Part shown: positions 2,006 through 18,073 of the stretch, piece by piece
Layout: every line of letters starts with the position of its first letter
How positions within the stretch are numbered: position 1 is the first letter of the stretch
Assembly (NCBI RefSeq): GCF_001306055.1
Contig: NZ_LGHJ01000012.1
Location: 240,001-272,000, forward strand
DNA: 32,000 nucleotides
Direction: 5' to 3'
From: Bellilinea caldifistulae
Lineage (GTDB): Bacteria > Chloroflexota > Anaerolineae > Anaerolineales > Anaerolineaceae
Made by a program: the position numbers and the translations under genes
Notes under the pieces: generated by a model
What the model saw: only the letters and a program-made list of their open reading frames with translations
The model's database searches: none
Told to the model about the DNA's origin: nothing

Positions 2006-2176
2006 GTTCTGGCAAAATAGAGTACTTGTTTTATAAACAATTTCTAAGCATTGAGGGTGGAATTCCTTTCTTTATCCTGCTATACTTTATTTAACCTATA
2101 GATTTACTAGGGTATTTTTCTGGAAGATGGGCTGGCCGGCAGGACGTGGCTGTGGCTTAGGGAAAGGAGACGTGTT

Positions 2177-2638
2177 ATGCGGCTTTCCAAGCGTGGCGAA
2201 TATGGCATTCGGGCATTGCTGCACTTAGCGGAACGAGCGAAGGAGCCGCAGCCACTGATTTCACTACAGGCGCTGGCGGAGAAAGAAAACATCCCGGTCA
2301 AGTTTCTGGAGCAGATCATGATCCCGCTGCGGAATGCTGGTCTGGTTCACACTCAGAAAGGCCCCGGCGGTGGTTACAAACTGGCAAAACCTGCCGAACA
2401 AATCTTTATCGGCAGCATCATCCGTATTCTGGACGGCATGCTGGCGCCGGTTACCTGCGTCAGCAAAACCGCTTACGCCCCTTGCGACTGCCCTGACGAA
2501 AAATCTTGCGGTCTGTGTATGGTGATGGCGGATGTGCGCGACGCAATAACGGCTATTCTGGATAACACCACCCTTGCCAGCATTGTCCAGCGCCGGTCTT
2601 TGCTCCTTTCCAGTCAGGAGGATTCAAATGATCCGTAA
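2177..2638 (+). CDS. Rrf2-family transcriptional regulator (IscR/NsrR-like, Cys-rich)
   Basis: N-terminus MRLSKRGEYGIRALLHLA is the classic Rrf2 winged-helix start. AAGGAG lies 7 nt upstream of the ATG. The Cys cluster CVSKTAYAPCDCPDEKSCGLC is compatible with Fe-S ligation. Confidence 0.9.
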   Translation: MRLSKRGEYGIRALLHLAERAKEPQPLISLQALAEKENIPVKFLEQIMIPLRNAGLVHTQKGPGGGYKLAKPAEQIFIGSIIRILDGMLAPVTCVSKTAYAPCDCPDEKSCGLCMVMADVRDAITAILDNTTLASIVQRRSLLLSSQEDSNDP

Positions 2639-3593
2639 AATAAATCCAATCCCCCGGTGGGTTCTTTCAGTTCTCCTAACCAGCCTCTTGTTGACGGGTT
2701 GTGGCAGTAGCAGCCCAAAGCAGGAAACCATTGCAGTTTCCGGCGCATTTGCCCTCTATCCATTAATGACCCAATGGGCAGATGCCTATCAAAAAAACAA
2801 TCCGGGGGTGCGTATTGATGTTACCGCCGGTGGGGCGGGCAAGGGTGTTTCCGATACACTGGCCGGGGCGGTAGATATCGGCATGGTCTCACGCGAATTA
2901 TCACCGGAGGAACTCAACCAGGGCGCTTTTCCAATCGCCGTAGCACGCGATGCCGTCTTTGGCACCCTCAACGCCGCCAACCCGTACCTTGACCAGATTC
3001 TGCAAAAAGGCTTCAACCCCCAAATCCTGGCCGGTATTTACATCACCGGTGAAATCACCACATGGGGAGAGGTGTTGGGCATGCCGGAGATCACCGATCA
3101 AATCCGCGTCTTTACCCGCTCCGATTCGGCCGGGGCAGCCGAGATGTGGGCGCTTTACATTGCCGGCAAAAAGCAGAGCGACCTTTTGGGTATTGGGGTC
3201 AATTCCGATCCCGGCATTCTTGAAGCCGTGATCAGGGATTCGCTGGCAATCGGCTATAACAACCTCAACTATGTGTTCGATGCCGAAACCCAAAAACCGG
3301 TCAGCGGGGTGGTCATCATGCCGCTTGACCTGAACGGCAACGGCTTCATCGACCCGGACGAAATCTTTACCGATAAATCAGCCGCAAGACAGGCAGTCGC
3401 CGACGGGCGCTATCCCTCACCGCCTGCCCGCGACCTGTACATCATCACCAAAGGCAATCCTTCCGGCAGCGTGCGGGATTTCATCCACTGGATCCTCAAT
3501 GAGGGACAGGCTTATGTTGAACCGAATGGTTACATCCCCTTGAACCCCGACCGGATACAGGAGATGCGCGCTCGTCTGGACGATCAGCCATAG
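2628..3593 (+). CDS. pstS: phosphate ABC transporter substrate-binding lipoprotein PstS
   Basis: PBP_like_2 / PstS-type sequence (AVSGAFALYPLMTQWADAYQKNNPGVRIDVTAGGAGKGV). Lipobox LLTGC. I chose the internal ATG at 2628, preceded by AGGAGG, over the ORF-track start at 2574. It overlaps the Rrf2 stop by 11 nt. Confidence 0.9.
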   Translation: MIRKINPIPRWVLSVLLTSLLLTGCGSSSPKQETIAVSGAFALYPLMTQWADAYQKNNPGVRIDVTAGGAGKGVSDTLAGAVDIGMVSRELSPEELNQGAFPIAVARDAVFGTLNAANPYLDQILQKGFNPQILAGIYITGEITTWGEVLGMPEITDQIRVFTRSDSAGAAEMWALYIAGKKQSDLLGIGVNSDPGILEAVIRDSLAIGYNNLNYVFDAETQKPVSGVVIMPLDLNGNGFIDPDEIFTDKSAARQAVADGRYPSPPARDLYIITKGNPSGSVRDFIHWILNEGQAYVEPNGYIPLNPDRIQEMRARLDDQP

Positions 3594-3618
3594 GCTGCCG
3601 CGAAGCGGAGAACTGCCG

Positions 3619-4575
3619 ATGAATACAGCCGCCGGATGGGCAAAACGGCCTGAAAGCCGAACAGGGGTACGCAAGCAGCGTAACCGCATTGCCCGGCGGT
3701 TGTTCTCCATTTCAGCCGGTTTTATTTTTCTGGTCTTATTTGCCATTGTGACAATGCTGGTGCAGCGTTCACTACCGTTATGGCAAAACGTCAGCTTGCC
3801 GGATTTCCTCACCGGCCGGGTGTGGAAACCAGATCAGGGATTGTTCGGCCTGCTGCCGTTTATCCTCGGCACCTTCTGGACAACCGGTTTGGGAATAGCC
3901 TTTGCGCTGCCGCTCAGTTTGTTTTCGGCGATATATCTGGCAGAATATGCCCGGCCGCTGACTCGTACGGTCATCAAGCCGGTACTCGATATTCTGGCAG
4001 GTATTCCCTCGGTTATTTATGGAATGTGGGGGGTGCTGGTAGTCGTACCGGTAGTGCAAACCACTGTTGCGCCGTTATTCAGCCGCGCCTTTCCGGGCAT
4101 CGGCCTGTTCCAGTCCAGCAACCCGACCGGCTTCAGCATCTTATCTGCCGGCATCGTTCTGGCGATTATGATCGCCCCAATTCTGATTGCCATCATGTAC
4201 GAAATTCTTCTGGCAGTACCGGTGGGGCTGCGCGAGGCGTCCATGGCGGTTGGCGCCAGTCGCTGGCAAACCATTAAGTACATTGTTTTGCCCAAAGCAA
4301 CCAGCGGCTTGATTGCCGCAATGATTTTAGGCACCTCGCGGGCGTTGGGTGAGACCATGGCGGTCTTGATGGTGGTTGGCAATGTTGCCGCTCTGCCGCG
4401 CTCTCTGTTTGACCCGGCCTATCCAATCCCCGCGTTGATCGCCAACAATTACGGTGAGATGATGTCCATCCCGCTGTACGACTCGGCGCTGATGGCGGCG
4501 GCTTTGTTTTTGCTGCTCATCGTGCTGAGTTTTAACATTCTTTCCTCACTGGCATTACGGAGAATGCTCCAATGA
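3619..4575 (+). CDS. pstC: phosphate ABC transporter permease PstC
   Basis: Polytopic BPD-type permease with an EAA-like loop (EASMAVGASRWQTIKYIVLPKA). Position directly after pstS. GGAG upstream of the ATG. Confidence 0.9.
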   Translation: MNTAAGWAKRPESRTGVRKQRNRIARRLFSISAGFIFLVLFAIVTMLVQRSLPLWQNVSLPDFLTGRVWKPDQGLFGLLPFILGTFWTTGLGIAFALPLSLFSAIYLAEYARPLTRTVIKPVLDILAGIPSVIYGMWGVLVVVPVVQTTVAPLFSRAFPGIGLFQSSNPTGFSILSAGIVLAIMIAPILIAIMYEILLAVPVGLREASMAVGASRWQTIKYIVLPKATSGLIAAMILGTSRALGETMAVLMVVGNVAALPRSLFDPAYPIPALIANNYGEMMSIPLYDSALMAAALFLLLIVLSFNILSSLALRRMLQ

Positions 4576-5447
4576 ACCCCCAAAGCCGCCTTCGACGTCG
4601 GCTGGCGCGGATTGAAGAAACCGCATTCCTATTTTTGATGCGGCTGGCTTTGATTTCGGTTGTTATGATTTTGGGCTGGATTCTGGCAACACTCCTGATA
4701 AAGGGGATGCCGGTGTTGAGTTGGGAACTGATCAGCCAGCCGCCGCAGGGCGGTTATTACCTTGGCGGCAAAGGTGGCATCCTCAACGCCATCCTCGGCT
4801 CACTTTATCTGGCAGCCGGCGGCACCCTCCTGGCGTTGATCGCTGCTCTGCCGGTGGTTTTCTACCTGACCACCTATCTCCATCAAAAAACCCGCCGCGC
4901 TGCTCTCATCCGCCTGGCACTGGATGTATTATGGGGCATTCCCAGCATTGTCTATGGCGTGTTCGGCTTTCTAATCATGCTCTCGCTGGGATTGCGGGCA
5001 TCGTTACTGGCCGGCATTATCACGCTAGCCTTTCTGGAACTGCCCATTCTGATCCGCGGCATGGACGAGTTCATCCGCACCACACCGGAAGAGCTGGTGC
5101 AATCTTCACTGGCAGTCGGCGCCACCCCCCTGGACACCACTCTCAAAGTGATCAGCCGTCAGACTCTTCCCGGCCTGATCACCGCTGTCCTGCTCGCCTT
5201 CGGGCGCGGGATTGGCGATGCCGCTTCGGTTCTGTTCACTGCTGGTTACACCGACCACCTCCCCACATCGTTGTTCGAGCCGGCCGCTTCTTTGCCGCTG
5301 GCGGTCTTTTTCCAGTTGGGCACACCATTTCCCGCCGTCCAGCAGCGGGCCTACGCCTCCGCCTTAGTGCTGACCATCATCATCCTGGTCATCAGTTTCA
5401 TCAGCCGCTGGCTGATTTCTCGCTTCAATAAGTATCTGGTTCGATAG
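4572..5447 (+). CDS. pstA: phosphate ABC transporter permease PstA
   Basis: ATGA start/stop overlap with pstC. Permease with loop QSSLAVGATPLDTTLKVISRQTLPG. Confidence 0.9.
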   Translation: MNPQSRLRRRLARIEETAFLFLMRLALISVVMILGWILATLLIKGMPVLSWELISQPPQGGYYLGGKGGILNAILGSLYLAAGGTLLALIAALPVVFYLTTYLHQKTRRAALIRLALDVLWGIPSIVYGVFGFLIMLSLGLRASLLAGIITLAFLELPILIRGMDEFIRTTPEELVQSSLAVGATPLDTTLKVISRQTLPGLITAVLLAFGRGIGDAASVLFTAGYTDHLPTSLFEPAASLPLAVFFQLGTPFPAVQQRAYASALVLTIIILVISFISRWLISRFNKYLVR

Positions 5448-5454
5448 GTGCTAC

Positions 5455-6210
5455 ATGGCCGAGTGTATCTCCATCCGGAATTTCAACGTTGCTTTCGGCA
5501 ACACACTGGTGTTAAAAAATATTCATCTGGATATTCCCTGCGGTCAGATTACAGCGATCATGGGGCCGTCGGGCTGCGGCAAGACGACCCTTTTACGCAG
5601 TATCAACCGCTTTCTGGAATTGAGCGACCACGTCACCATTAAAGGCGAAATTCTTATAGACGGTCAAAATATTTACGACCCGCAAGTTGATCCCATTGAC
5701 ATCCGTTCCAAAGTTGGTCTGCTTGCCCAACGGCCCTTTTCATTGCCCATGTCCATCATCGACAATGTCGCCTACGGACTGCGCATTCACGGCATGGCGG
5801 ACGGAAAAGACTTGCACCGAGCCGTCAGGCATTATCTGGAAATGGCAGGGCTGTGGGAGGAGGTCAAGGACAGGCTGCGGGAGCCGGCCGTCCGCCTGTC
5901 CATTGGGCAGCAGCAACGCCTGTGTCTGGCACGCGGGCTGGCAGTGGAACCGGAGATCATCCTCGCCGACGAACCAACCTCTGCGCTTGATCCGATTTCA
6001 GCACAAAACATTGAACAGCGACTGCTGGAACTGCGCGAAAAGTACACCATCGTGCTGGTAACCCATACGGTTCGGCAGGCCCGCCGGCTGGCGGATTATC
6101 TGGTCTTTATGTACCTTGGTGAAATGGTCGAGTGCGGCGAAGCGTCAGCCATTTTCTCCAACCCGCAACACGAGCTGACTCGCGCCTATCTTCACGGGGC
6201 AATCGGCTGA
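5455..6210 (+). CDS. pstB: phosphate ABC transporter ATP-binding protein PstB
   Basis: Walker A GPSGCGKTT, signature LSIGQQQRL, Walker B ILADEPTSALD, H-loop VTHT. The length (251 aa) and the N-terminal 'I.N..V.FG' pattern are typical of PstB. Confidence 0.95.
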   Translation: MAECISIRNFNVAFGNTLVLKNIHLDIPCGQITAIMGPSGCGKTTLLRSINRFLELSDHVTIKGEILIDGQNIYDPQVDPIDIRSKVGLLAQRPFSLPMSIIDNVAYGLRIHGMADGKDLHRAVRHYLEMAGLWEEVKDRLREPAVRLSIGQQQRLCLARGLAVEPEIILADEPTSALDPISAQNIEQRLLELREKYTIVLVTHTVRQARRLADYLVFMYLGEMVECGEASAIFSNPQHELTRAYLHGAIG

Positions 6211-6255
6211 GGTTGATTTCTCTGCCAACTGGCTTGTCGGCGCAGCCTTCCTCTT

Positions 6256-7575
6256 TTATTTTCTGACAAGCGGCAGGTAAACCAGCTCAGCATTGGCGCT
6301 GAACCAGACCCTGTCACACTGCGCCCACACCCCGGCAACCACCTCACCACTGGCGGCCATCTCTCCGCCGGAATTATCCGAACTGCATGATTCGGAATAA
6401 ATCAGACGCTCCCCTTTGATCGGGTCATAAATAAACACCTGCCGTGGTTCGCTGGACTGGGGCTGCCTTTTGTAAGCCATCACAAAACCTCCGCCGGCCG
6501 GCACCATCTCCAGTTCGCGTTCCGAATAGGTGTTATTGGTGATTTGCGTAATCATACCCGCCGCATCCCGCAGCCAAACCTCGGAAGTAGCCGAAATGGT
6601 GTTGTTCCTCAAAAAGCCGATCAGGTAGGCATTGTTCACCCCAACCAGATGCACATCCCCCAGCCGATAGGCACCGCCGGACAGTGTCAATTTCATTTCC
6701 CCACTCCAATCGGTGTTGTCCACTTTGATGTTCTGGTGGTAAATCTCATCATCACTGCCGGAATTATCCTTGACATAGGCAAACGCAACCCGCTCACTGC
6801 CGGCTGTTGAGTAGGTGGTAATGGCAGGCGGATTGAGCAGGTCGCTATCGGCGATCAGCAAGATGCGGTTTTGGGTCATGTTTCCGCTACCATCGGTGGT
6901 ACGGTTGGAGGCATACAGAACACGGCCGGTGCCCGGAGCGCCCCTGGCATACCAGATCACATGCAGGTAGCCGGCCGAATCAACCACACCTTCAACCGTT
7001 CTAACCATCGGGTCGGAGCTTTCCGAGTTCACTTTTCCTCTTTCACTTCCACTGCTCACTTTCTCATAACGCAGCGTGTACTGAGTACCTTCTTGTTTTG
7101 AATAGATCACATAGCCGGTACTGCCGCGGGTGATGACTTTGACTATCGGGCTGAAACTATCCGGGGGATTGTCAGAAAAATCTGGAGTACAGACAACATC
7201 CACTGATGAGGGATAAATCTTGATACAAATGCGGTACTTTGGGGATGAAGCGTCATACTTTTCGTACCACGCAAGGATTACAGTCCCATCAGCCAGCACA
7301 CCGATTTCAGGAGCGGCCGGCCACCAACCCGTTATGAGACGAATCGGCTGCTTATCCTCGATTATGCCCAATCTGGTACGCAGATAGACAAGTTGATGGG
7401 TAGTGGGATCTTCGCCGACGATATGTTTTGTACCCTGGGAATCCACCGCAATCGCCAGCAGATAATTGGCTGCCAGATCATTGAGGGGATGAGGGGGCAT
7501 GAAGGTGATTGTGCAGGCCGCCAACAGGCTGATTACAGCCACAAGGACACTGAATTTGAAAAGGTGCTTAAACAT
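6256..7575 (-). CDS. hypothetical lipoprotein, repeat-rich all-beta (propeller-like)
   Basis: Signal peptide plus lipobox (VISLLAAC). About 8 recurring strand motifs of the form G-x-hydrophobic-x-hydrophobic-aromatic (GTVILAWYEK, GYVIYSKQ, GYLHVIWYARG, RVAFAYVKDN, AYLIGFLRNN, GFVMAYKRQ, VVAGVWAQ) spaced about 45-60 aa apart. Confidence 0.7.
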   Translation of the reverse strand: MFKHLFKFSVLVAVISLLAACTITFMPPHPLNDLAANYLLAIAVDSQGTKHIVGEDPTTHQLVYLRTRLGIIEDKQPIRLITGWWPAAPEIGVLADGTVILAWYEKYDASSPKYRICIKIYPSSVDVVCTPDFSDNPPDSFSPIVKVITRGSTGYVIYSKQEGTQYTLRYEKVSSGSERGKVNSESSDPMVRTVEGVVDSAGYLHVIWYARGAPGTGRVLYASNRTTDGSGNMTQNRILLIADSDLLNPPAITTYSTAGSERVAFAYVKDNSGSDDEIYHQNIKVDNTDWSGEMKLTLSGGAYRLGDVHLVGVNNAYLIGFLRNNTISATSEVWLRDAAGMITQITNNTYSERELEMVPAGGGFVMAYKRQPQSSEPRQVFIYDPIKGERLIYSESCSSDNSGGEMAASGEVVAGVWAQCDRVWFSANAELVYLPLVRK

Positions 7576-7825
7576 AAAAAATCTCCCTTCGTCTGGTCAA
7601 CGGCGATGACCACCCCGTTTACCCCTACCCCTAAACGAGAAGAGATTTTGTGAACCCTCAATTAATAAAACCTGACTTGCTCAATTTCATAATACAACAA
7701 AATCAATGGATTATTTCTTAACAAATCGAGAGAATTTTGGACGGAACGGGCTGAAGATTTGCAGAAAGCAATTGAACCCTCGGCAGGTTGCCAAAGCGGG
7801 TCATCCGGTGTATAAAGAACCAAAT

Positions 7826-8908
7826 ATGACCTCAAAAGGACAATTTCACGCCGTCATCCTGTGGATTGCAGTCGGGGTTTTGCTTCTCGTTCAGGCAGGG
7901 CAGGCCAGCGCCGTAAAAATTACCGCCCCGCCCCTCAATCGTCTTCCGCAGGAAAGGCTTTGTACGGGCAGTTTTTTGCCGGTCAGTCTGCCTCTCACCG
8001 ATTTGGGCAACCATGAATACATCCGCATGGACGGCAACTCGACCGGTTTTACAGGCGGCCTGTACCCCAACGGCGAAAACCAGCCCCCTGCCGCTCACTG
8101 GCTTGCCGGCAGGCTCATTGCTCAGCAGATTGTCCCGCTGGATTCAAACGGCAGTCCCGATTTTCGCAACGGCAAAATTGGGATGATTTCGGTGGGTATG
8201 TCGAATACGGCAATGGAATTTTCCACCTTTCGCAGCCTGGTGATGACCGATAGCCGCCTGAATCCGCATCTGGTACTGGTCAACGGCGCCCAGGCCGGTC
8301 AGACGGCGGAGTACTGGCTGAGTCTCGATTCACCAACCTGGGAAGTGGTCAACCAACGCCTGGAATCCGCCGGTTTATCACCCCAGCAGGTTCAGGTAGT
8401 CTGGCTCAAGCTGACCCGCACCGGCGGTGGAAACTTCCCCCAAAAAGCCCAAACCCTGCAAGCCGACCTGACCACCATTGTCCAAAATTTAAAAGTTAAG
8501 TACCCGCAAGTCAAAATGGTCTTTCTTTCCAGTCGCACCCGTTCCTATACCTACTGGAACGGGCTCAGCCCGGAGCCGGCCGCATTTGAAAGCGGTTTTG
8601 CCGTCAAGTGGCTGATCGAGGAACAAATCAGCGGCACGCCGGACTTAAATTACGACCCTCAACGCGGAGCGGTGCGCGCGCCCTACCTGATGTGGGCAGC
8701 CTATCTGTGGGCTGACGGCATCAACCCCCGCGAGGATGGTTTTATCTGGCTGCCGGAGGATCTGGTGAGCGATTGTACTCACCCCTCGGACGCCGGCCGG
8801 TTAAAAGTAGCCCGGTTGCTTTTACAATTTTTTACCAGCGATCCGGCCGCAACCCCCTGGTTTTTGACTTCCTATCCGCTCTTTCTGCCGCTGGTAACCC
8901 ACCCGTGA
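7826..8908 (+). CDS. hypothetical secreted protein, possibly an SGNH-like hydrolase
   Basis: I chose the internal ATG at 7826, which gives a signal peptide ILWIAVGVLLLVQAGQASA. GMISVGMSNT resembles SGNH block I and DCTHPS resembles block V (DxxH). The CDS call is solid but the functional call is weak (about 0.35). Confidence 0.6.
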   Translation: MTSKGQFHAVILWIAVGVLLLVQAGQASAVKITAPPLNRLPQERLCTGSFLPVSLPLTDLGNHEYIRMDGNSTGFTGGLYPNGENQPPAAHWLAGRLIAQQIVPLDSNGSPDFRNGKIGMISVGMSNTAMEFSTFRSLVMTDSRLNPHLVLVNGAQAGQTAEYWLSLDSPTWEVVNQRLESAGLSPQQVQVVWLKLTRTGGGNFPQKAQTLQADLTTIVQNLKVKYPQVKMVFLSSRTRSYTYWNGLSPEPAAFESGFAVKWLIEEQISGTPDLNYDPQRGAVRAPYLMWAAYLWADGINPREDGFIWLPEDLVSDCTHPSDAGRLKVARLLLQFFTSDPAATPWFLTSYPLFLPLVTHP

Positions 8909-8986: not shown

Positions 8987-9532
8987 ATGAACCCATCCGA
9001 AAATCTGGAAGTGGCAACCCTGGGAGGCGGCTGCTTTTGGTGTCTTGAACCCATTTTCGCCCACCTGAAAGGCGTGGAAGACGCAGTGGTCGGTTACGCG
9101 GGCGGTAAGACGACTGCGCCCAGTTACGAACAGGTCTGCACCGGATTGACCGGACACGCCGAGGTGGTACAGGTCACCTTCAACCCGGCGATCATTTCCT
9201 ACCGCGAGATTTTGGAAGTATTTTTCTCGGTGCATGACCCCACCACCCGCAACCGGCAGGGAGCCGATGTCGGCACCCAATACCGCTCGATCATCCTGTA
9301 TCATAACGAGGAACAGCGTCAAACCGCTGAAAACCTGATCGCCGAGTTGAATCAGGAAGGCATCTGGCAAAAGCCGATTGTGACCGAGGTAGTGCCTTTC
9401 ACGGCCTTCTACCCGGCGGAGGAATATCATCAGGAATATTTCGAGAAGAATCCCTACGCCGGGTATTGTCAGGTGGTTATTCAGCCCAAAGTCAGCAAAT
9501 TTCGCAAGCAGTTTGCCGAACGGCTAAAGTAG
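8987..9532 (+). CDS. msrA: peptide-methionine (S)-S-oxide reductase MsrA
   Basis: Catalytic motif GGGCFWCLE, then HAEVVQVTFNP and DPTTRNRQGADVGTQYRS, which are hallmark MsrA blocks. Confidence 0.95.
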   Translation: MNPSENLEVATLGGGCFWCLEPIFAHLKGVEDAVVGYAGGKTTAPSYEQVCTGLTGHAEVVQVTFNPAIISYREILEVFFSVHDPTTRNRQGADVGTQYRSIILYHNEEQRQTAENLIAELNQEGIWQKPIVTEVVPFTAFYPAEEYHQEYFEKNPYAGYCQVVIQPKVSKFRKQFAERLK

Positions 9533-9537
9533 ACTGC

Positions 9538-10305
9538 TCAGGATTGCTTTTTTGCCCGAGTTGGCTTGTCAGGGCGTTTTTTGGGCGGTGAAGTAACCGC
9601 TTCGTCCTCTTTTTCCAGTACAACTCGCAGTCTGGCAGCGCTTTGCACCTGAAAGACCAGCGTTTGACCGGATAATAAACTGGCTTCGCGGCGGTCAAAA
9701 CCTTTTTTACCCACCGAAACCAGCAAGGGTTGATCGGGGCGGTATGTGGAGGGCGGCCGCTCGCCTTTGGCTTTGGCGCCTTTTTCCACCTTTCCCTGCT
9801 CCGGCAAGGGCGGCATCACCACTTTGAGCGCCATCTCAGCTTTGTTCAAGAGATCGGCAACACGGTAAACGCCGGGACGCAGAGGAGTGACCGTAAAAAA
9901 GTCACCCGCCGGAATTTGTTCAGCGTGATTCAGGAGCACCTGTTTTTCCTTGCTACCCAGCCGAATAATCCGAACCTGGAAGGTGGAAACGCCTCGTGAG
10001 CTGTAAAAACCCAGCACCCCACCGGTGTGCAGCCGCAGGTCGGCATCCTCGCGACAGCAATCCCGTTCTGTTGGATTCTTAATCGTAGAGAGATCAAGAT
10101 TGTGCTGATACGGAGCATCCCCATCCACCACCGTGACCACCAGACGAAGTGGAGTACGGTTGGTGCGGCTGATGAATACCTCGTAATCCCCCGCTTCCTG
10201 GAAGTGATGGATCAAGGTAGAAAGCACGCTGATTTGGGTGCTATCGAAAGAGCGTTGAGCGAATAACGCCCGGTTCAATGTAGCTTGTTTTTGATTACTA
10301 GTCAT
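9538..10305 (-). CDS. hypothetical protein, gene 3 of a 3-gene operon (beta-rich, basic tail)
   Basis: GGAGG lies 7 nt upstream of the ATG and inside the end of the preceding gene, with a 3-nt intergenic gap. Two beta-rich halves are joined by a Lys/Pro/Gly linker (PPLPEQGKVEKGAKAKGERPPSTYRPDQP). C-terminal basic tail SPPKKRPDKPTRAKKQS. No family recognised. Confidence 0.8.
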   Translation of the reverse strand: MTSNQKQATLNRALFAQRSFDSTQISVLSTLIHHFQEAGDYEVFISRTNRTPLRLVVTVVDGDAPYQHNLDLSTIKNPTERDCCREDADLRLHTGGVLGFYSSRGVSTFQVRIIRLGSKEKQVLLNHAEQIPAGDFFTVTPLRPGVYRVADLLNKAEMALKVVMPPLPEQGKVEKGAKAKGERPPSTYRPDQPLLVSVGKKGFDRREASLLSGQTLVFQVQSAARLRVVLEKEDEAVTSPPKKRPDKPTRAKKQS

Positions 10306-10308
10306 CGC

Positions 10309-11283
10309 TTAACCTCCAACATCCGCTTGCACGACCATTTCGACATCATCTACCCGCACAAATAGATTGCGAACCGGAACGGTCACCGCCACCAGTTCAA
10401 CTGGCGAACCGCTCAACAGCACCGAAGTACTGATTTCTTTTGCCAGTACCTCCAGCGGGTCATCCACGCGGATCAACGGCACACACGCCCCGAAGAATTC
10501 ACCCACCAGTTGAATGAGCAGGTCTCCCAACCCAAAACTGATGTTGAACAAATCGCTCAGCCACTCGTCAATTTCATCGGGGATATCCAGCAGCCAGCGG
10601 ATGAAATCGGCAATACCGCCGATGATGGCGAGAATCAAATCGCGCACCCAGCCGCCGGGCAGCAGCGCCGTCACTGCGGCGGTCAGCGCGTTTTCAATCA
10701 GGTTGCCGACAATGTCGGCAAAGTCGAACAGGTCAAGGTCAATGAAATCCGGGTTGAGGAAAATATGCCACTGATTATGGTCAGGAAAGGGATCAATGAC
10801 GCTGGCGTTCACCAGTAAATCCCTCAACAAGCCGCAGGGGTCAATCAACGGCGGCGGTATACTGGCATCGTAATAGCGCACCACCGGACGTCCGGCGACG
10901 CTCAATTCCTGCGCCACAAAAGCGGCCAGATCCGGTGAAATGGACACATCCGGGTTGGCGGAGAAGACACACCAGCGCGGCAGACAGATATCCGGGAACG
11001 GCCACGGCATATCAATACATCCGCCGCCCACGCAAATTTCGGGAATATCCAGCCCAAGGGTGAACTGAAACATATCCCAGCGCACATCCAGTTCATCCAC
11101 CAGCACCGAATTGTCGGAGCGGAAATCCACACTGCCCCCTTCCAGATGCCCCTTGACGTGATAGCCGGCGGTAAACGGGCCAAAACTGGTGCTGTCCTGT
11201 GCTTCCCAACGGATGCTATCGCGCAGCACCACAAACAAACGCTGAAAAGCACTTTCGGATACGGCAACGGTCAGGTCAGCCAT
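10309..11283 (-). CDS. hypothetical acidic Cys-containing protein, gene 2 of a 3-gene operon
   Basis: AGGAGG upstream of the ATG, with only 2 nt between the upstream stop (TAA) and the ATG. The N-terminal block DLTVAVSESAFQRLFVVLRD parallels gene 1. Contains a hydrophobic/amphipathic stretch LTAAVTALLPGGWVRDLILAIIGGIADFIRWLL. No signal peptide and no family recognised. Confidence 0.8.
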   Translation of the reverse strand: MADLTVAVSESAFQRLFVVLRDSIRWEAQDSTSFGPFTAGYHVKGHLEGGSVDFRSDNSVLVDELDVRWDMFQFTLGLDIPEICVGGGCIDMPWPFPDICLPRWCVFSANPDVSISPDLAAFVAQELSVAGRPVVRYYDASIPPPLIDPCGLLRDLLVNASVIDPFPDHNQWHIFLNPDFIDLDLFDFADIVGNLIENALTAAVTALLPGGWVRDLILAIIGGIADFIRWLLDIPDEIDEWLSDLFNISFGLGDLLIQLVGEFFGACVPLIRVDDPLEVLAKEISTSVLLSGSPVELVAVTVPVRNLFVRVDDVEMVVQADVGG

Positions 11284-11285
11284 GA

Positions 11286-12224
11286 TTATGCACCTCCTGT
11301 GATGATCAATTTCATAAATGCTTTGAGCTGATCCTCTTCAACCGCCGGGTTGTTGGGCACATCCGCCGGAACAGCAGAGGGTTGCAGCGTCACGGTCCTG
11401 CCGAGCGTCAAACCCATTTCCTGAAATTCTTTATTGACGTCCAGCACCATTTTTTCCAGCGGGATGATCAGCCGCGGCAGGATGCCCAGCTTGAGAACGG
11501 TGGTCAGGTAACATTCGATGGCGCTTTCCATGTCGTTGGGTTGCATGTCCACGATTTCCAGACCGTCCAGGCGGGTTTTGAGCCAGATTTGCTGGGAGCC
11601 GGGTACGCTACCCCACTCAAAATGTCCCACAGCAAACAGTTCCAGACAGAAGCAGATCAGCTGGCGGGTTGGCAGGGGAATGGTGCGGGGTCTTTCACGG
11701 TTATCCACTGCTGCCACGGGGGGAGTGTAGTGAGTGGAGATCCCCGGAACGCGCTCTTTGATTTCGCCGATGGCCAGTTGCTGCTGAGAAACCAGGAAAC
11801 GTTCGATGAGTGGCAGCAATTCGTCAATGATCTCCTTTGATGGACAGTCAATTCCCATACAGCCTTTCAGGCGCAGGGCAAACCGCTGAGCCGGCAGCGC
11901 CCCCAGTTCCGGCGGCAGCCCAAAAACATTGCCGGGGTGAAAATCAATCTGGGCATCGGTCAATTGCAGACAAAAGTTCAAACCAATTGGCACAGGTGCC
12001 CCCAGAATGGGCAACGGTTCCTGCTCGGTAAACAGCGGATTTTTCGCCTTCAACACCCTCTCATCCACCTCGAACTTTACGCAAAACAATCCCGCATTGT
12101 TGTGAAAAAAGGGTGTTGCGTAATTGAACAGCGAGGGACGCTGGCGCATGATGTGGCGCACCAGCCGGTTGATGCCGTCCTCATGGACGGCGCCGAACAG
12201 ATCTGAATGATCGGTAAACGGCAT
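11286..12224 (-). CDS. hypothetical protein, gene 1 of a 3-gene operon (paralogue of gene 2)
   Basis: I chose the ATG at 12224 (MPFTDHS...) because GGAGG sits 5 nt upstream; the ORF-track start at 12248 would place that SD inside the coding region. N-terminal block DLFGAVHEDGINRLVRHIMR. No signal peptide and no family recognised. Confidence 0.8.
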   Translation of the reverse strand: MPFTDHSDLFGAVHEDGINRLVRHIMRQRPSLFNYATPFFHNNAGLFCVKFEVDERVLKAKNPLFTEQEPLPILGAPVPIGLNFCLQLTDAQIDFHPGNVFGLPPELGALPAQRFALRLKGCMGIDCPSKEIIDELLPLIERFLVSQQQLAIGEIKERVPGISTHYTPPVAAVDNRERPRTIPLPTRQLICFCLELFAVGHFEWGSVPGSQQIWLKTRLDGLEIVDMQPNDMESAIECYLTTVLKLGILPRLIIPLEKMVLDVNKEFQEMGLTLGRTVTLQPSAVPADVPNNPAVEEDQLKAFMKLIITGGA

Positions 12225-12262
12225 AGGAACCTCCATTTTTCTGAACAAGGGTGGAATAGCCC

Positions 12263-12285
12263 TCTCAACTGTGAGAAAGTTGAGA
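12263..12285. promoter_or_regulatory. perfect 8-bp inverted repeat (TCTCAACT-N7-AGTTGAGA) about 40 nt upstream of the 3-gene operon start
   Basis: Read directly from the sequence. Its position between the leader hairpin and the SD of the operon suggests an operator or RNA stem. Function unknown. Confidence 0.3.
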
Positions 12286-12330
12286 TGCTCGACTTTGCTG
12301 TGGATCGGGAATGGAGCAGGGGTGGAGAAT

Positions 12331-12358
12331 CAAAACACGCGGGTTCATCCCCGCGTGT
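12331..12358 (-). terminator. GC-rich hairpin followed by TTTT on the minus strand (intrinsic-terminator-like) upstream of the 3-gene operon
   Basis: ACACGCGGG (12335-12343) pairs perfectly with CCCGCGTGT (12350-12358) around a 6-nt loop. The plus-strand AAAA at 12332-12335 reads as a U-tract on the minus strand. The tract is only 4 U, so this is a moderate call. Confidence 0.4.
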
Positions 12359-12395
12359 CTCTCGTCAATATATGGATAATAACCCAGTCGAGTTG

Positions 12396-12424
12396 TTGAC
12401 TATTTTTATCATCAATATCATAAT
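12396..12424 (+). promoter_or_regulatory. sigma70-like promoter reading rightward (TTGACT-17-CATAAT)
   Basis: -35 TTGACT at 12396-12401, exact 17-nt spacer, -10 CATAAT at 12419-12424, in an AT-rich (~33% GC) spacer. Confidence 0.4.
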
Positions 12425-12588
12425 ACTACTATCTCATGCTCATTTCAACCCCTAATTTTTGTCGGGTTTGTAACAAAAACGGTTGGCAAATTCATGACTG
12501 GTAGTGTCCGGGGTTTAAAGACCAACCATCCGCTACATGTCCAGTTTCTCAATCTGTTTTACTAAAACCCACCAGCTTTGTGACAGAC

Positions 12589-12802
12589 TCATCCATGCTC
12601 CTCTTTTGCAAAAAAGGTGAGGAAGATTTCGATCTCAGCGACAACCGTTTCTGCCGGATGACATTTGTTATGATAAAGAATATACTGCCTGACCCAGTGA
12701 AGATAGGTTTTTTTCAATGCTGTAAGGATAATGCTTCAAGCGAATGGCATCTCAAAGCTGGTCGAGAAGTTTTTTGGGTTTTGGAGAGAATGGATCGGGC
12801 AT
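12589..12802 (-). pseudogene. N-terminal stump (~70 codons) of an IntI-type / Phage_int_SAM_4 tyrosine recombinase, inactivated
   Basis: The minus-strand translation is MPDPFSPKPKKLLDQL*DAIRLKHYPYSIEK, then a frameshift in an A7 run, then TYLHWVRQYILYHNKCHPAETVVAEIEIFLTFFAKEEHG*. It matches the remembered IntI1 N-terminus [53 protein letters not shown]. The TGA at 12752-12754 replaces the conserved Arg. No catalytic domain follows. Confidence 0.7.
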
Positions 12803-12957
12803 AAAAACAGCTAAAACTTTTCCATGATTGGATATATAATCCATACAGTAATAATTCTACTCAGAGCATATCTGACAACCCGGCATCATAGCAGTATAAC
12901 CCGCTTTTTTGGTCTGGATATATGGCAAAAATGCAGTGTATCAGAAGTCCGTTAATA

Positions 12958-12964
12958 GTTAGGC
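12958..12964 (+). other. integron core-site-like heptamer GTTAGGC (GTTRRRY), candidate attI crossover point
   Basis: Exact match to GTTRRRY. It lies 155 bp upstream of the integrase-stump ATG on the opposite strand and 42 nt upstream of the helicase ATG. GTTAGGCGC is the exact reverse complement of GCGCCTAAC at 17148-17156. Confidence 0.5.
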
Positions 12965-12999
12965 GCCTCACGATGTAGGCAATCCATGGCTGGTGTTCG

Positions 13000-15900
13000 A
13001 TGACTGAACCTCAATCTGTAGACTTGAATCCGAAGATTCGCCGCACCGTCAATGCCGCGCTCGTTTTATGGACCCGCCGACTCATCGACTACTCGCGAGC
13101 CAACTCCCTCCTCTTCTACCGCGACCTCAAGGTTGGCACTCTCGACCTAACTGCGGAGACGGAGGCTGTGGACCGTCTGCTGGCAGGCGACAAACTCACA
13201 GTTGAGTCACTGGTCTCGACAGGCCGGTACGCAGAGAGCCCTGACCCCGCCGTACGTACCCAAGCCGAGGACGAGGTACGCCAGAAGGTACGGAGCGCGC
13301 TCATCTCGCTCCTGCGCAAGGCGTTGAGCAACCTCGAGGAGAAAGGCATCGAGACGCTCCACCTGGCAATGGGGATGGCTACATGGCCCGCCGACGATGG
13401 TGGGCGGCCGTACGATGCGCCCGTGCTGCTGCTACCGGCCCGAATCGAGGCACGCGGCCGGGCGGGCGACGACCTGCGACTCGCGGTTGCGGGCGAGCCA
13501 CAAATAAACCCGGTACTTCTGTATGTGCTCGAGGAGAAATACGAGATCCGCATCGACGCGTCCTCAGTGCTGAGCATGTGCGGCGGCGAAGACGAATCAG
13601 GGCAGTGTCGTATCGACCTAGAGAAAGTGTTTGAGCACATCGAACATGCGGCTACAAGCGTACCGGGCTTCAGGATAACGCAGCGTGTGGTCCTGGCTAA
13701 CTTTCAGTACGCGAAGATGGCTATGGTCGAGGATCTGAAGAGGAACGGGGACATTATAGCTTCGAGCACCATCGTTGCGGCTGTCGCCGGCCATTCGCTT
13801 TCACGACAGAAGCTGGCCCAAGCGGCGATCGATATCGCGCCAGCCCAGATCGATGACCGCCCGGCGTCCGACGACTACCTGGTGCTCGATGCGGACTCCA
13901 CGCAGCACCGCGCCATCGTGCTTGTCGGCAAAGGGCAGAACGGTGTCATACAAGGGCCACCGGGAACTGGCAAGAGCCAAACCATCTCGAATCTCATCGC
14001 TCAGAGCGTGGCCGAGGGGCGCCGCGTGCTCTTCGTCGCACAGAAGCGGGCGGCGCTGGATGCGGTCATCAAGCGGCTTAGCCATCCGGATGTGGGGCTT
14101 GGTCATCTAGTGCTCGATCTACACGGTGCATCTGTGTCGCGGAAGGAGGTGATGGCGCGGCTTGCAGATGCATTGGAGCAGATACGTATTGCGCTGCCTG
14201 CTGACGGGGTCGAGGCACTTCACCGCGAATTTGAGGTTCGGCGCAAGCAATTAAACGAACACGCACGTCGGGTAAACCAGATTCGCCAACCGACGGGACT
14301 TTCTGTGAACCAGATGGTTGGCAGACTGCTCCGCCTGCCGGCAGCGGCGAAGTCCACGCTTCGACTCCGTGGACAGACACTGGCCGCGCTCACGGCTGAG
14401 CGCGCAAGCGAGGTAAAGCAGTGGATCCAACAGGCTGCTGCCAACCCGACTCTCTTCCTCGGCACAGATCCCTCGTCGTGGAACAACGCGGATATAAGGG
14501 ACGGTCGCGGCGCACAGGAAGCCCTAGACCTGGCCACCAAAGCAGCCAACGAGCTCTGGCCTGAGTTCGAGCGGCTTCTCGAACAGGTAGTGAACCAGCT
14601 TGGCGTCCGGCCACCGAATACGCTCAGTGAGGTTGCTGTGTTCCTGTCCCTTCTCCGTGATGCGGGAAGCATTCGCCAGCAGTACAGTGCCGAGTTTTTC
14701 TCATCAAAGCCTGGCGAGTTGGGGACGGCACTCCAGCCCGCGGCGGCCGGATGGGTCACCCGCGCCTGGGCGTTCCTGAGCAACCCGGTGTACCGCGCTG
14801 CGCGCAAACGCCTGCTCGCATTGCGCACGGAACCGGCACCGGTCGCAACGTTGCGAGAAGAGGCGTTACGAGCCGAGGATATCCTCCGCCGTTGGCAGAC
14901 CCTTGCCCCAACCTCGGCCGTGCCTGTTCGGGCGGATGCTGAAATGGAACTAAGTGCTGCGTTCAACGCCCTTGACGAGGTGACAAAGAAACTTGGGGCC
15001 ATGACGGAAGCAGGGCCGTTTGACGGCATGCAGCTTTCGTCGGCGGGCTCACGGTTGCGGGCGCTCGCAGACGACCGACAGACCCCGTTCCGCTTACCAA
15101 GCATCTACGATCTTCGATCGCTGTTCAGCAAGGCGAATCTCGTCGGTTTTATTGATGATCTCCGCAAGCACGGTGTTGCTGCCGAGCACTGGTCGGCGCG
15201 ATTCGAGTACATCTGGCTTTACTCGGCGCTGGAGCAAGCGTTGGCATCCGATCCATCTCTTGCTTCATTCAACGGCCGAGCACACGAACAGGTCATCGAG
15301 GAGTTCAAGCGTTTGGATCATGAACGCATCCGCCTCGCTGCCCAGCGCGTGCGCAGAGTCCACGCCGAGCGAGCGATCGAGGCGATGAACCGCCACTTCG
15401 ATCAGGCAGATCTGGTTCGGAGAGAGGCTGCCAAGAAGTCACGACACATTCCGCTGCGCGAATTGTTGGCCCGCGCGCCTGATGTTCTCACTGGGATCGC
15501 ACCTTGCTGGGTCGCAAGCCCACTTTCGGTTAGCCAACTGCTGGATGGCAGCAAGAGGCACTTCGACCTCGTCATCTTCGACGAGGCAAGTCAGATCCTT
15601 CAAGAGGAGGCGATCCCCGCGCTCTACCGCGCGGAGCAAGTGGTTGTTGCCGGTGATCGGCACCAATTGCCTCCCACGACGTTCTTTGTGACAGCTGTCG
15701 AGGGCGAGGACGAAAGCCTCGATGACAATGAGACGGACCAGCCTGTCGCCGCGATTGGTGGGTTTGAGAGCTTGCTCGACACGCTGGAAGCCTTCCTGCC
15801 GAACTGGCTCTTGGAGTGGCACTACCGTAGCGAGGACGAGCGGCTCATCACTTTCAGCAACACCCATGTGTACACGGGGCGCCTCGTAACCTTTCCGGGC

Positions 15901-17106
15901 GCGCGTGGTCAGGAGGCAATTCGGCACATTCTTGTACCGCACGACCCCGCGTTAGGTGGACAGGAGGAAAGTGCATCGCGGGAAGTCGAGGAGGTTGTGA
16001 GTCAGGCGATTCTGCACGCGGAAACGCGGCCACACGAGTCCCTCGGTGTCATCACTATGGGCATCAAGCACGCAAACCGCATACAGGCTGCTCTAGACCG
16101 CGCCCTCGACCTCCGGCCCGATCTGTCGGATTTCTTCTCACTGGACCGCGAAGAGCGTTTCTTTGTCAAGAACCTAGAGACCGTGCAGGGCGATGAGCGT
16201 GATGCCATCATCTTGTCGATCGGCTATGGCAAAACGGCAAATGGCGATCTGCCACACCGCTTTGGTCCGCTCACGCAGGACGTCGGTTACCGCCGCCTGA
16301 ACGTGGCCATCACTCGGGCGAGGCGCCGGATGTGCGTCATAAGTTCCTTTTCGCACGATGAGATCGATCTGAATCGCTCCGGGAGTCGGGGCGTACAACT
16401 GCTCAAAGCGTATCTGCAGTACGCTGCTAGTGGAGGCACGCGTCTGCCTGAGGACGAGAGCGCGGGAGAAGTTAGTCTCAATGCATTTGAGGCCGATGTC
16501 CGCGACGCTTTGGAGGCTCAGGGCGTCAAGACGCGACCACAGTTTGGCGCGTCTCGCTATCGCATTGATCTGGTCGCCATGCATCCAAAGAAGCCGGGTC
16601 GGCCGGTTCTCGCGATCGAATGCGATGGGGCATCTTATCATTCGAGCGCCACTGCGCGGGACCGCGATCGACTTAGGCAAGCCCATCTCCAGCGGCTGGG
16701 CTGGCGATTCCACCGCATCTGGTCGACCGACTGGTTCTACCACCGCGAGCAAGAGATTGAGCGCGCAATTGCGGCATACGAGGAGGCTGTTCGCTGGGCG
16801 GATTTATCGGACGCCGGTGGCCGCACCCCGCAAGCTGTGGGCAGTACTCAGCCCATGAGGCAGGCTCAGCAGCAACCAACCGGGCGGCAGCGGGGACCAC
16901 GGCCGCCCGTGCCGGTGCGCGAGACAATCGACCAATACAGCAACCGCGAATTGCGGCAGATCGCCGCGTGGGTCACATCCGACGGTTTGCTACGTACGGA
17001 CGAGGAACTCATCCGCGAGATTTTTGAGGCACTGCCATTTGAGCGGCTAGGCAGCAGAATAAGAGAGCGCCTTAAGACAGTCGTGAAGGCCGTGCGACGG
17101 CATTAG
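13000..17106 (+). CDS. SF1 (Upf1/Dna2-like) helicase fused to a Vsr/DUF559-like PD-(D/E)xK nuclease domain and a DUF3320-type C-terminal tail (DUF4011-family architecture)
   Basis: Walker A GPPGTGKSQT (nt 13954-13983). Motif II LVIFDEASQ (DEASQ at nt 15580-15594). Motif III VVAGDRHQLPPT. Also WHYRSEDERLITFSN, TVQGDERDAIILS and motif VI RRLNVAITRARRRMCVI. Nuclease-like block RYRIDLVAM...VLAIECDGASYHSS...RLGWRFHRIWSTDW (about nt 16477-16749). C-terminal DQYSNRELRQIAAWVTSDGLLRTDEELIREIFEAL. About 530 aa are inserted between Walker A and motif II, as in DUF4011 helicases. Confidence 0.9.
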   Translation: MTEPQSVDLNPKIRRTVNAALVLWTRRLIDYSRANSLLFYRDLKVGTLDLTAETEAVDRLLAGDKLTVESLVSTGRYAESPDPAVRTQAEDEVRQKVRSALISLLRKALSNLEEKGIETLHLAMGMATWPADDGGRPYDAPVLLLPARIEARGRAGDDLRLAVAGEPQINPVLLYVLEEKYEIRIDASSVLSMCGGEDESGQCRIDLEKVFEHIEHAATSVPGFRITQRVVLANFQYAKMAMVEDLKRNGDIIASSTIVAAVAGHSLSRQKLAQAAIDIAPAQIDDRPASDDYLVLDADSTQHRAIVLVGKGQNGVIQGPPGTGKSQTISNLIAQSVAEGRRVLFVAQKRAALDAVIKRLSHPDVGLGHLVLDLHGASVSRKEVMARLADALEQIRIALPADGVEALHREFEVRRKQLNEHARRVNQIRQPTGLSVNQMVGRLLRLPAAAKSTLRLRGQTLAALTAERASEVKQWIQQAAANPTLFLGTDPSSWNNADIRDGRGAQEALDLATKAANELWPEFERLLEQVVNQLGVRPPNTLSEVAVFLSLLRDAGSIRQQYSAEFFSSKPGELGTALQPAAAGWVTRAWAFLSNPVYRAARKRLLALRTEPAPVATLREEALRAEDILRRWQTLAPTSAVPVRADAEMELSAAFNALDEVTKKLGAMTEAGPFDGMQLSSAGSRLRALADDRQTPFRLPSIYDLRSLFSKANLVGFIDDLRKHGVAAEHWSARFEYIWLYSALEQALASDPSLASFNGRAHEQVIEEFKRLDHERIRLAAQRVRRVHAERAIEAMNRHFDQADLVRREAAKKSRHIPLRELLARAPDVLTGIAPCWVASPLSVSQLLDGSKRHFDLVIFDEASQILQEEAIPALYRAEQVVVAGDRHQLPPTTFFVTAVEGEDESLDDNETDQPVAAIGGFESLLDTLEAFLPNWLLEWHYRSEDERLITFSNTHVYTGRLVTFPGARGQEAIRHILVPHDPALGGQEESASREVEEVVSQAILHAETRPHESLGVITMGIKHANRIQAALDRALDLRPDLSDFFSLDREERFFVKNLETVQGDERDAIILSIGYGKTANGDLPHRFGPLTQDVGYRRLNVAITRARRRMCVISSFSHDEIDLNRSGSRGVQLLKAYLQYAASGGTRLPEDESAGEVSLNAFEADVRDALEAQGVKTRPQFGASRYRIDLVAMHPKKPGRPVLAIECDGASYHSSATARDRDRLRQAHLQRLGWRFHRIWSTDWFYHREQEIERAIAAYEEAVRWADLSDAGGRTPQAVGSTQPMRQAQQQPTGRQRGPRPPVPVRETIDQYSNRELRQIAAWVTSDGLLRTDEELIREIFEALPFERLGSRIRERLKTVVKAVRRH

Positions 17107-17147
17107 AGAACTGGGAGTGTACCATGATGAGCACGGATACACGCCTA

Positions 17148-17209
17148 GCGCCTAACAACAGCATGTAGCAGACGGCACTGCACGCTACCGCTGATGCCAG
17201 CCGTTAGCC
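17148..17209 (+). other. attC-like recombination site (R'' GCCTAAC ... R' GTTAGCC) between the two cassette ORFs
   Basis: GCCTAAC (17150-17156) fits RYYYAAC. GTTAGCC (17203-17209) fits GTTRRRY at 6 of 7 positions. The unit is 60 bp. Internal imperfect pairing is GCAT/ATGC (17161-17164 with 17194-17197) and GTAGC/GCTAC (17165-17169 with 17184-17188), with unpaired bases on one arm. Confidence 0.45.
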
Positions 17210-17231
17210 CGCCTTGAGGCAGAAGAGACGA

Positions 17232-17839
17232 ATGGTTCAAATACCAACCATACAAGATATTGAAGCATCCAGACAAGATTTTGAGGCAAATGAGCCGCGG
17301 GATCTCTTTTATCATACTGCAACGGAGTTGGTGTCGCTCGCGCGCTGGAAGGCAGGTCATCGTTTAGTGTTGCCGAAGCATTATTCGTGCTCCTTCAGAT
17401 ATGGAACAAGACGTTCTATCAATACAGAAAATTCGATGGACAACATTTTGCCGAGATAGAGCGGCTTATCAATGACCACTGTTTGATGCTCATCGCTTTC
17501 AGACAACGCTCCATAGAAGGTTTCGACCAGGAGCAGGAGGATGAAGGAAAAGTTAAGCACGTTTTCAAGGCTTTCGAGGAGGTTCTCGGCCCTGTAGGTG
17601 CTGCAAAGTTTTTGCATCTGTTGGCACCGCTTTTCTTTCCGCTTTTGGACCGCGTCATAGCCGAGGCTTACAACCTTCCGCTAGTGAAGATTGGTACCAA
17701 TGCCGACAAGTACCGTCGTTTTATGCGAATTGTGAAGGAGCAGATTAAAACCCTTGGCGGGGAGCAAACTATTAGTCGAAATCCATTGAAAGCGATAGAC
17801 GAGTACAATTACTGCAAGTACACCAAAGAATGGATATGA
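17232..17839 (+). pseudogene. ~200-aa hypothetical gene split by a 1-nt frameshift (second cassette ORF)
   Basis: The frame starting at 17232 reads MVQIPTIQDIEASRQDFEANEPRDLFYHTATELVSLARWKAG and then degenerates. The -1/+2 frame is open from 17294 and reads protein-like from about 17360 (SFSVAEALFVLLQIWNKTFYQY...GPVGAAKFLHLLAPLFFPLLDRVIAEAY...). The switch point is about 17355-17365. A sequencing error is an alternative explanation. Confidence 0.55.
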
Positions 17840-18073
17840 TTAAGTCGTGCGACAATCTAACACGTGGTTCCAGCCGCCCCGCTCCGCTCGCTGCACTTGC
17901 TCCGCGTGCGGCTGAACGCAAACCGTTTCCGCAGCAAAATTTGTGCGCTCCGCCACGCCCGTACCGATTGGCTTCTTAATCCGCTGCTGCTCCTGTTGAA
18001 AATCACCTCCTTTACCTCCAAATTTCGCCCAGATGAGAGGCGTTCCAGGCAACCGATGCTACCCCTACCAGCA

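Follow-up and report, generated by a model that had tools for sequence, protein, structure and literature searches.

We describe here a locus in the genome of Bellilinea caldifistulae (Chloroflexota, Anaerolineae) at which a broken integron integrase gene (intI), an attI site and two gene cassettes form an island between a three-gene operon and an L,D-transpeptidase gene. The analysis covered a stretch of 32,000 nucleotides of contig NZ_LGHJ01000012.1, referred to below as the window, and the features of the locus are listed in Table 1. The first cassette (cassette 1) carries one intact gene for a predicted helicase-nuclease, and the second (cassette 2) carries a frameshifted gene and runs into the remnant of a chromosomal gene. 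The locus is, very probably, a decayed chromosomal integron, with a dead integrase gene, a preserved attI and an intact 4,245-bp helicase-nuclease cassette in first position. This order (intI - attI - cassette - attC - next cassette) had been proposed in a preliminary description made from the letters alone, and the three checks suggested there, with an attC model, with recombinase profiles and by comparison with relatives, all support it. We document below what the parts are, how they are arranged, that cassette 1 is mobile and that the island is variably present. Rfam and tRNA scans of the window gave no match.

Table 1. Features of the integron locus in window coordinates (L numbers denote loci used for comparison; R1 and R2 are the attC covariance models described in the text).
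Feature	Position	Strand	Basis or remark
Island DNA of unknown origin, from the left chromosomal junction (about 12462-12470) to the stump end	12468..12588		Homology limits
intI pseudogene (stump), first ~70 codons, N-terminal SAM-like domain only	12589..12802	-	PF13495, NF011946, TIGR02249, amino-acid identity
A7 run (T7 on the plus strand), +1 frameshift	12708..12714	-	Equivalent in L086 has 6 bases
In-frame TGA, codon 17	12752..12754	-	Arg in relatives; CGA in L086
attI region, crossover core GTTAGGC at 12958-12964	12803..12964	+	Alignment A4, blastn
Cassette 1, 4,245 bp, TTAGGCGCC... to G of the attC R' core	12959..17203	+	Boundaries common to other arrays
Intact gene, 1,368 aa, DUF4011 + SF1 helicase (AAA_11/AAA_12) + MTES_1575 nuclease	13000..17106	+	Pfam, PADLOC, NCBIfam
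attC1, 62 nt; minus strand = recombining bottom strand	17148..17209	-	R1 29.9 bits, R2 36.9 bits
Cassette 2, ~724 bp	17204..17927	+	TT of the attC1 R' core to GTT of the attC2 remnant
Frameshifted gene, ~202 codons, weakly DUF6308-like	17232..17839	+	Two overlapping open reading frames in different frames
Putative degraded attC2; R'' ATCTAAC 17855-17861, R' GTTTCCG 17925-17931	17855..17931	-	R1 weak match, 13-mer
3' remnant of a chromosomal small membrane-protein gene	17922..18036	+	Alignment A8

The integrase stump reads, on the minus strand from 12802, MPDPFSPKPKKLLDQL*DAIRLKHYPYSIEK and, past the A7 run, TYLHWVRQYILYHNKCHPAETVVAEIEIFLTFFAKEEHG*, which reproduces the earlier translations as written. 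For profile tests the stop and the frameshift were repaired. The resulting 70-residue sequence matches PF13495 (E 1.7e-13), and its NCBIfam matches are the integron-integrase models NF011946 and TIGR02249 only; no XerC, XerD or other recombinase model of NCBIfam matched at E < 0.1. The stump shares 71-77% amino-acid identity with IntI fragments and full-length IntI, its DNA is 72-82% identical to genes that pass TIGR02249, and the seven full-length relatives tested score 452-485 bits on that model (cutoff, 265). The suggested comparison with IntI, XerC and XerD profiles thus came out in favor of IntI. A scan of one genome per species gave 283 relatives of the stump; in about two-thirds of the 80 retained loci the frame is full length (~320 aa).

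The TGA stands where a conserved Arg (CGA) had been said to belong: relatives have Arg at this position, and because L086 has CGA, the stop must have arisen in the B. caldifistulae lineage. Compared by direct reading, the A run has a 6-base equivalent in L086 (GATAAAACC against GAAAAAAACC), and an intact ...TEKTY... reading would call for A6 rather than A7; both the stop and the frameshift are absent from L086. Four further substitutions (R39Q, R47C, M52T and G53V) fall at near-invariant residues. Full-length IntI queries found no integrase sequence past about residue 69 anywhere in the window, which agrees with the earlier count of some 70 surviving codons and a lost catalytic domain. Nothing of the remaining integrase was found in 12250-12588, and weak tblastn matches at 9068-9374 were considered as the rest of the gene and rejected as noise. 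An annotated fragment of 42 aa (P0009) aligns to the stump at 41 of its 42 residues and differs only in the start codon. The stump is an integron-integrase remnant, not a functional gene. Inside it, at 12658-12686, lies a promoter-like site directed toward the cassettes, a candidate Pc by consensus match only, whose first hexamer lies in a segment deleted in L086. Two other integrase pseudogenes (L004, 10001-10207; L006, 6251-6457) end after ...YSTEKT, the spot of the frameshift in the window, and the GAAAAAAC run may be prone to recurrent slippage in integrases of this family.

Upstream of the stump, the DNA between its ATG and GTTAGGC is homologous (alignment A4) to the integrase-upstream regions of 11 Anaerolineae/Chloroflexota integron loci, several of which carry intact intI. 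On the integrase strand the consensus reads ...TATACTGCAATTATGC...GATACACTGCA...ACGGACTTCTGA..., ending TATTAATTATA beside [CT]AAC, and conservation breaks off exactly at the [CT]AAC/GTT core, at position 12958. By blastn, homology to the 11 loci stops at 12962-12969, and homology to L086 and L100 stops at 12956. The region adjoins intI and has the crossover core, cut between G and TT (G/TT), of an attI site. Two direct repeats within it, AGCAGTATAA (12890-12899) and TGCAGTGTATC (12932-12942), may be integrase-binding sites. The locus defines the conserved attI of Anaerolineae integrons; apart from the clinical classes, only a minority of integrons have a known attI sequence.

The cassette motifs GTTAGGC, GCGCCTAAC (17148-17156) and GTTAGCC (17203-17209) lie where they had been reported, with distances right to within 1 nt, and give attC1 its R'' (GCCTAAC, 17150-17156) and R' (GTTAGCC) boxes. 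With 3 occurrences of GTTAGGC in the window and 2.6 expected, the motif count alone is at chance level and does not serve as evidence. A strict RYYYAAC...GTTRRRY scan was tried and misses attC1 since its R' is GTTAGCC. With motifs and folding energy both at chance level, the case had to rest on comparison with other genomes.

Two Anaerolineae loci with intact integrases (L013 and L044) have arrays of ~130-nt repeats upstream of the integrase gene. Nine of these repeats align as a hairpin made up of an R box, a spacer that is unpaired and an L stem bearing two extrahelical bases, and ten pairs of the consensus structure of this seed alignment covary by compensatory change. A covariance model (R1) was built from the nine aligned repeats, and a second, trimmed model of 68 positions (R2) drew on 27 attC sites found in Anaerolineae and cyanobacteria; neither contains window sequence. 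On the 80 integrase loci R1 gave 33 matches, all 33 of them on the integrase strand and upstream of intI, and it is therefore valid as an attC detector. Run on the window with filters off, R1 places its best match at attC1 on the minus strand (17209-17148), with a rough E value of about 1e-7 over the full model and a central part of 7 nt instead of 78; its second-best match scores 10.8 bits. R2 likewise singles out attC1 (Table 1), against 6.9 bits on the plus strand there and 11 bits at the next best site. The strand is that expected from the direction of the stump, and an unpaired T and C of attC1 stand at the extrahelical positions of the attC family. As the suggested attC search required, the interval spanned by the two boxes is the sole strong match in the window, and it shows the imperfect R''/L''...L'/R' palindrome, the extrahelical bases and the fixed strand relative to intI that characterize attC sites.

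Cassette 1 also occurs in other, unrelated arrays. Its 5' boundary, GTTAGGCGCC, is common to L105, L106, L107/L108 and L109; the homology of these loci to the window starts at the G of this sequence, and the sequence upstream differs in each. Copies of the helicase gene are 86-89% identical in DNA over 4.1 kb, and close homologues (up to 88% protein identity) are found in Nitrospira, Kallotenue and many metagenomes. Upstream of the helicase cassette, L105 and L109 have the 3' arm of another attC, and in L107 the cassette lies behind toxin-antitoxin cassettes (MazE-PIN and HigB-HTH), all of which have complementary ends and an attC of their own. The ends of cassette 1 are complementary over 9 nt (GTTAGGCGC / GCGCCTAAC), like those of real arrays, as had been noticed from the reverse complementarity of 17148-17156 and 12958-12966. 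On the 3' side, homology to L083 passes through attC and stops at GTTAG of R'; L106 also carries the attC of cassette 1, and the three copies (window, L083 and L106) form a common 23-pair hairpin. With units bounded at G/TT in different arrays, cassette 1 clearly reads as a mobile cassette that has moved between arrays.

Several copies depart from this pattern. In L107 (7128-7285) and L108 (4314-4471) the attC of the helicase cassette is severed after CCTAA of R'' and followed by unrelated GC-rich sequence instead, which may reflect an insertion into attC. In L083 the helicase gene and attC lie within an integrative element with its own tyrosine integrase, and the usual 5' boundary of the cassette is missing. 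The 8-mer GTTAGATT occurs there at 5802 (135 nt upstream of the gene) and at 10140 (the attC R' core); considered as an insertion product, this repeat fits none that could be derived.

Two copies of the helicase gene, in L081/L082 and L084/L085, have no cassette ends; their surroundings are housekeeping genes or a defence island. A crude neighbour-joining tree nests these non-cassette copies within the cassette-borne ones, which suggests that they lost their cassette ends; they also retain part of the cassette 5' leader. The reverse, birth of a cassette from paired copies with and without attC, was considered, and end loss was judged more likely on the crude tree. We offer tentatively, as a reading that falls short of probable, that very large defence cassettes may form a pool in circulation at present, crossing phyla via Chloroflexota-type integrons, with the 4.25-kb helicase-nuclease unit among them, the defence-island copies (L081 and L084) being cassette derived. 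If true, integrons would feed defence islands besides storing genes. Such a cassette would be longer than the size beyond which recombination is believed to lose efficiency. Poor recovery of a unit with attC sites 4 kb apart is described in a preprint (10.64898/2026.03.17.712381).

The genes flanking the island were compared in relatives, and the island proved variable, as had been asked of a cassette rather than a core gene. The neighbouring operon is found on metagenome contigs at 82-91% identity, and the relatives without the island or with another cassette at the same attI have 82-84% flank identity. No island lies between the operon and the L,D-transpeptidase gene in L087-L090 and L104; island-free relatives hold at this place a whole small membrane-protein gene of ~165 codons. 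Homology to them stops at 12452-12460, integron-bearing relatives share sequence up to 12485, and 12468-12588 has no match to integrase or to DNA flanking intI elsewhere. L086, L100 and L091 share 12667-12956 (attI and the start of the stump) with the window and have an additional 181-nt deletion; the platform therefore predates the split of these lineages, with the first cassette differing. L086 and L100 carry another first cassette, whose ends are complementary over 10 nt; in L086 it encodes an unknown protein of 264 aa and has the ends GTTGGCACGC / GCGTGCCAAC and a long attC. On these alignments, the helicase gene is a cassette and not a core gene.

Cassette 2 has a GC content of 46-47%, versus 60% for cassette 1. 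Its gene changes frame near 17360-17366 and resembles DUF6308 at E 6e-4 to 1e-3, below the Pfam cutoff. Beyond the gene, R1 matches weakly at 17853-17929, with 5.2 bits and E 0.06 for a 221-nt region, and the 13-mer AACGGTTTGCGTT of the attC family has its single exact window match here (0.03 expected); both matches are on the expected strand. These two matches point weakly to a degraded attC (attC2). The preliminary description recognized attC1 in its inventory of the array and overlooked both attC2 and the frameshift in the cassette 2 gene. The two attC sites are ~650 nt apart, the spacing considered for an attC cluster with no integron integrase (CALIN), the second being far below any sensible score threshold. 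At the distal end, homology to L104, L089 and L087 (alignment A8) begins within ACCGTT (17922-17927), a hexamer present in both the attC consensus and the L104 gene, and the fusion fits either integrase recombination at a secondary GTT site or a microhomology deletion.

The 1,368-aa protein is 100% identical to B. caldifistulae protein P0039, and its homologues at up to 88% identity are of equal length. It matches PADLOC PDC-S37 with 954 bits (E 3e-287) and PADLOC Hhe with 490 bits, and by profile match and DUF4011/helicase/nuclease architecture it is a member of PDC-S37, a candidate defence family. Against NCBIfam it scores 930 bits for ProA (cutoff, 1500) and 657 bits for Hhe (cutoff, 2000), both below cutoff, and it is a relative, not an equivalog, of ProA/Hhe. 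From its family membership and the company it keeps, it is probably an antiphage gene. A literature search on PDC-S37 found nothing, and that on DUF4011 listed Hhe-type annotations only.

The history that these features suggest is as follows. An integron integrase would formerly have inserted circular cassettes at attI, with crossover at G/TT (12958), via the folded bottom strand of attC. The DUF4011/SF1-helicase/nuclease cassette with its short attC would be the most recent insertion at attI, and behind it would lie an older cassette, its gene now frameshifted, its attC degraded and its distal end joined at GTT to a truncated chromosomal gene. intI would subsequently have been shortened to ~70 codons, and the stop, frameshift and missense changes would have come afterwards. 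Because intI is truncated and broken, the array would be unable to rearrange itself, and any further movement would require an integrase from elsewhere. The intact helicase gene may still be expressed from the intI/attI side and act in phage defence.

Several points weigh against this account. The IntI-specific extra domain near the catalytic core falls in the deleted part of the gene, GTTAGCC deviates from strict GTTRRRY, and 4 of the modelled pairs of attC1 are noncanonical. The attC1 interval scores far above chance under the attC covariance models trained on other genomes, but its hairpin (17148-17211) gains no stability over shuffled sequence (z = -0.32). The models themselves are custom-built, with rough E values, in place of the curated IntegronFinder model. 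By covariance model alone attC2 is not significant, and cassette 2 starts with sequence that does not complement its R''. Antiphage function is predicted from family membership, and the NCBIfam scores for ProA and Hhe lie below cutoff.

Four alternatives to the decayed integron were weighed. The array could be a living satellite: an intact integron integrase, encoded at another place in the B. caldifistulae genome, would still cut out its cassettes and put them back. Both attI and attC1 are well kept, with attC1 outscoring the copies in L083 and L106; genomes of Bellilinea sp. hold intact integrases (P0193 and P0268); different cassettes stand at the same attI in the window and in L086; and arrays without an integrase may be mobilized in trans (Cury et al. 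2016, PMC4889954). Set against this, no B. caldifistulae integrase is among the 120 best relatives listed, which is weak evidence, and the decay of the cassette 2 gene and of attC2 suggests that turnover is absent. We regard a living array as unlikely, if by no means far-fetched.

A different route of arrival is improbable. The helicase unit would then have come by secondary-site insertion, or by homologous recombination between arrays after transformation, and would merely abut the stump. Natural transformation is reported to shuffle cassettes (PMC12614218), and the joining of the distal array end to a chromosomal gene at GTT indicates that events outside attI did happen at the locus. Against this route, the junction falls exactly on the conserved attI core, and the 5' end of the cassette falls on the base at which its copies in other arrays begin. 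Such a junction is what attI x attC recombination specifically yields.

It is very improbable that an ordinary tyrosine recombinase fragment lies beside an acquired defence gene with GTTAGGC and GCCTAAC there by coincidence. The heptamer count, the insignificant hairpin energy and the large number of 9-nt inverted repeats expected across 32 kb would all suit such a coincidence, but the attC models match strongly at attC1 alone, attI homology terminates at the core, the same cassette boundaries are present in other arrays and no XerC/XerD model matches the stump. That the 70-codon frame is a free-standing small SAM-like-domain protein and not a gene remnant is hardly credible: all 38 database homologues are short (42-122 aa) and match PF13495 only, but they are contig-end fragments or pseudogenes running into the integrase core (...VSASTQNQALNALLFLYR...), one of them (P0030) joins N and C termini and is internally deleted, the window copy holds a stop and a frameshift, and the genome scan gave many full-length versions of 320 aa.

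The neighbouring DNA holds further features. A second variable island (2006-6270) carries an Rrf2 regulator and the four genes of an ABC transporter (a binding protein of the PBP_like_2 type, two permeases and an ATPase); it is missing from all close relatives, in which ~2005 joins ~6256-6271 directly. The gene at 6256-7575 (minus strand) encodes a lipoprotein with a PDIAV motif (NF053835, 474 bits). Relatives differ in this part too: L087 and L089 lack 6512-7947, and L088 and L090 lack 6256-8848. None of the three proteins (255, 324 and 312 aa) encoded by the operon beside the integron (9538-12248, minus strand) matches a Pfam, NCBIfam or PADLOC model. For the 312-aa gene, the one closest to the integron, distant metagenome contigs (L092-L103) hold relatives with 34-61% amino-acid identity, and on several of these contigs DNA homology extends into the 324-aa gene. 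Upstream of the operon start, a GC-rich hairpin followed by TTTTG (gagacacgcggggatgaacccgcgtgttttg; 12334-12365, minus strand, listed as the 12243-12272 equivalent) is kept in L086; it was not called by the terminator scan.

The decayed integron described here is a well-documented instance of an established element type, not a new class of element, and it leaves the understanding of how integrons work unchanged. Degenerate integrons and integrase-free arrays are established, Chloroflexi are known integron carriers, and loss of intI is one proposed origin of CALIN-type elements (Cury et al. 2016, PMC4889954). The locus resembles the chromosomal integrons of Anaerolineae (such as L013, L044 and L003, whose integrases pass TIGR02249) in its homologous attI block and core, in the divergent layout of intI and cassettes, in cassette ends complementary beyond 7 nt and in the attC family (AACGG...GTC.GC.TGCA...TGTTRGGC, whose integrase strand has two extrahelical bases). 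It differs in that no more than 70 codons, themselves broken, are left of its integrase, the array is down to two cassettes and the distal end is fused to a chromosomal gene; its attC1 is of the short 62-nt form, as in L010 (3593-3654), and not of the 130-nt form. As in degenerate integrons and CALIN, attC-bounded cassettes stand without a working integrase; unlike them, the window keeps attI and an N-terminal stump. The pseudogene screen of Cury et al. used a C-terminal IntI profile with PF00589 and a clustering distance of 4 kb (PMC4889954); since the stump is N-terminal only and attC1 lies 4.3 kb from it, that screen would probably miss it. The locus is a base-level example of chromosomal integron death and marks a blind spot, in that an N-terminal stump and attI identify a dead integron which standard screens would probably overlook.

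The helicase-nuclease shares with Hhe, ProA and PDC-S37 proteins a DUF4011 N terminus, an SF1 helicase core and a C-terminal MTES_1575/DUF559-type nuclease; unlike the corresponding models (lengths, 1,550-1,911), it has 1,368 aa, and its activity is predicted from sequence. Integron-borne antiphage systems have been described as small and streamlined (10.1101/2024.07.02.601686). Like the antiphage cassettes of that study and of 10.1101/2024.07.02.601719, cassette 1 is a single-gene candidate defence cassette in first position; unlike the small, streamlined ones, it is 4.25 kb long, with a gene as long as its non-cassette homologues. The modestly unusual feature of the locus is clearly this movement of a 4.25-kb cassette between arrays, and a 4.2-kb cassette with a full-length candidate antiphage helicase, spread over several arrays, bears on the view that integron-borne defences have to be small.

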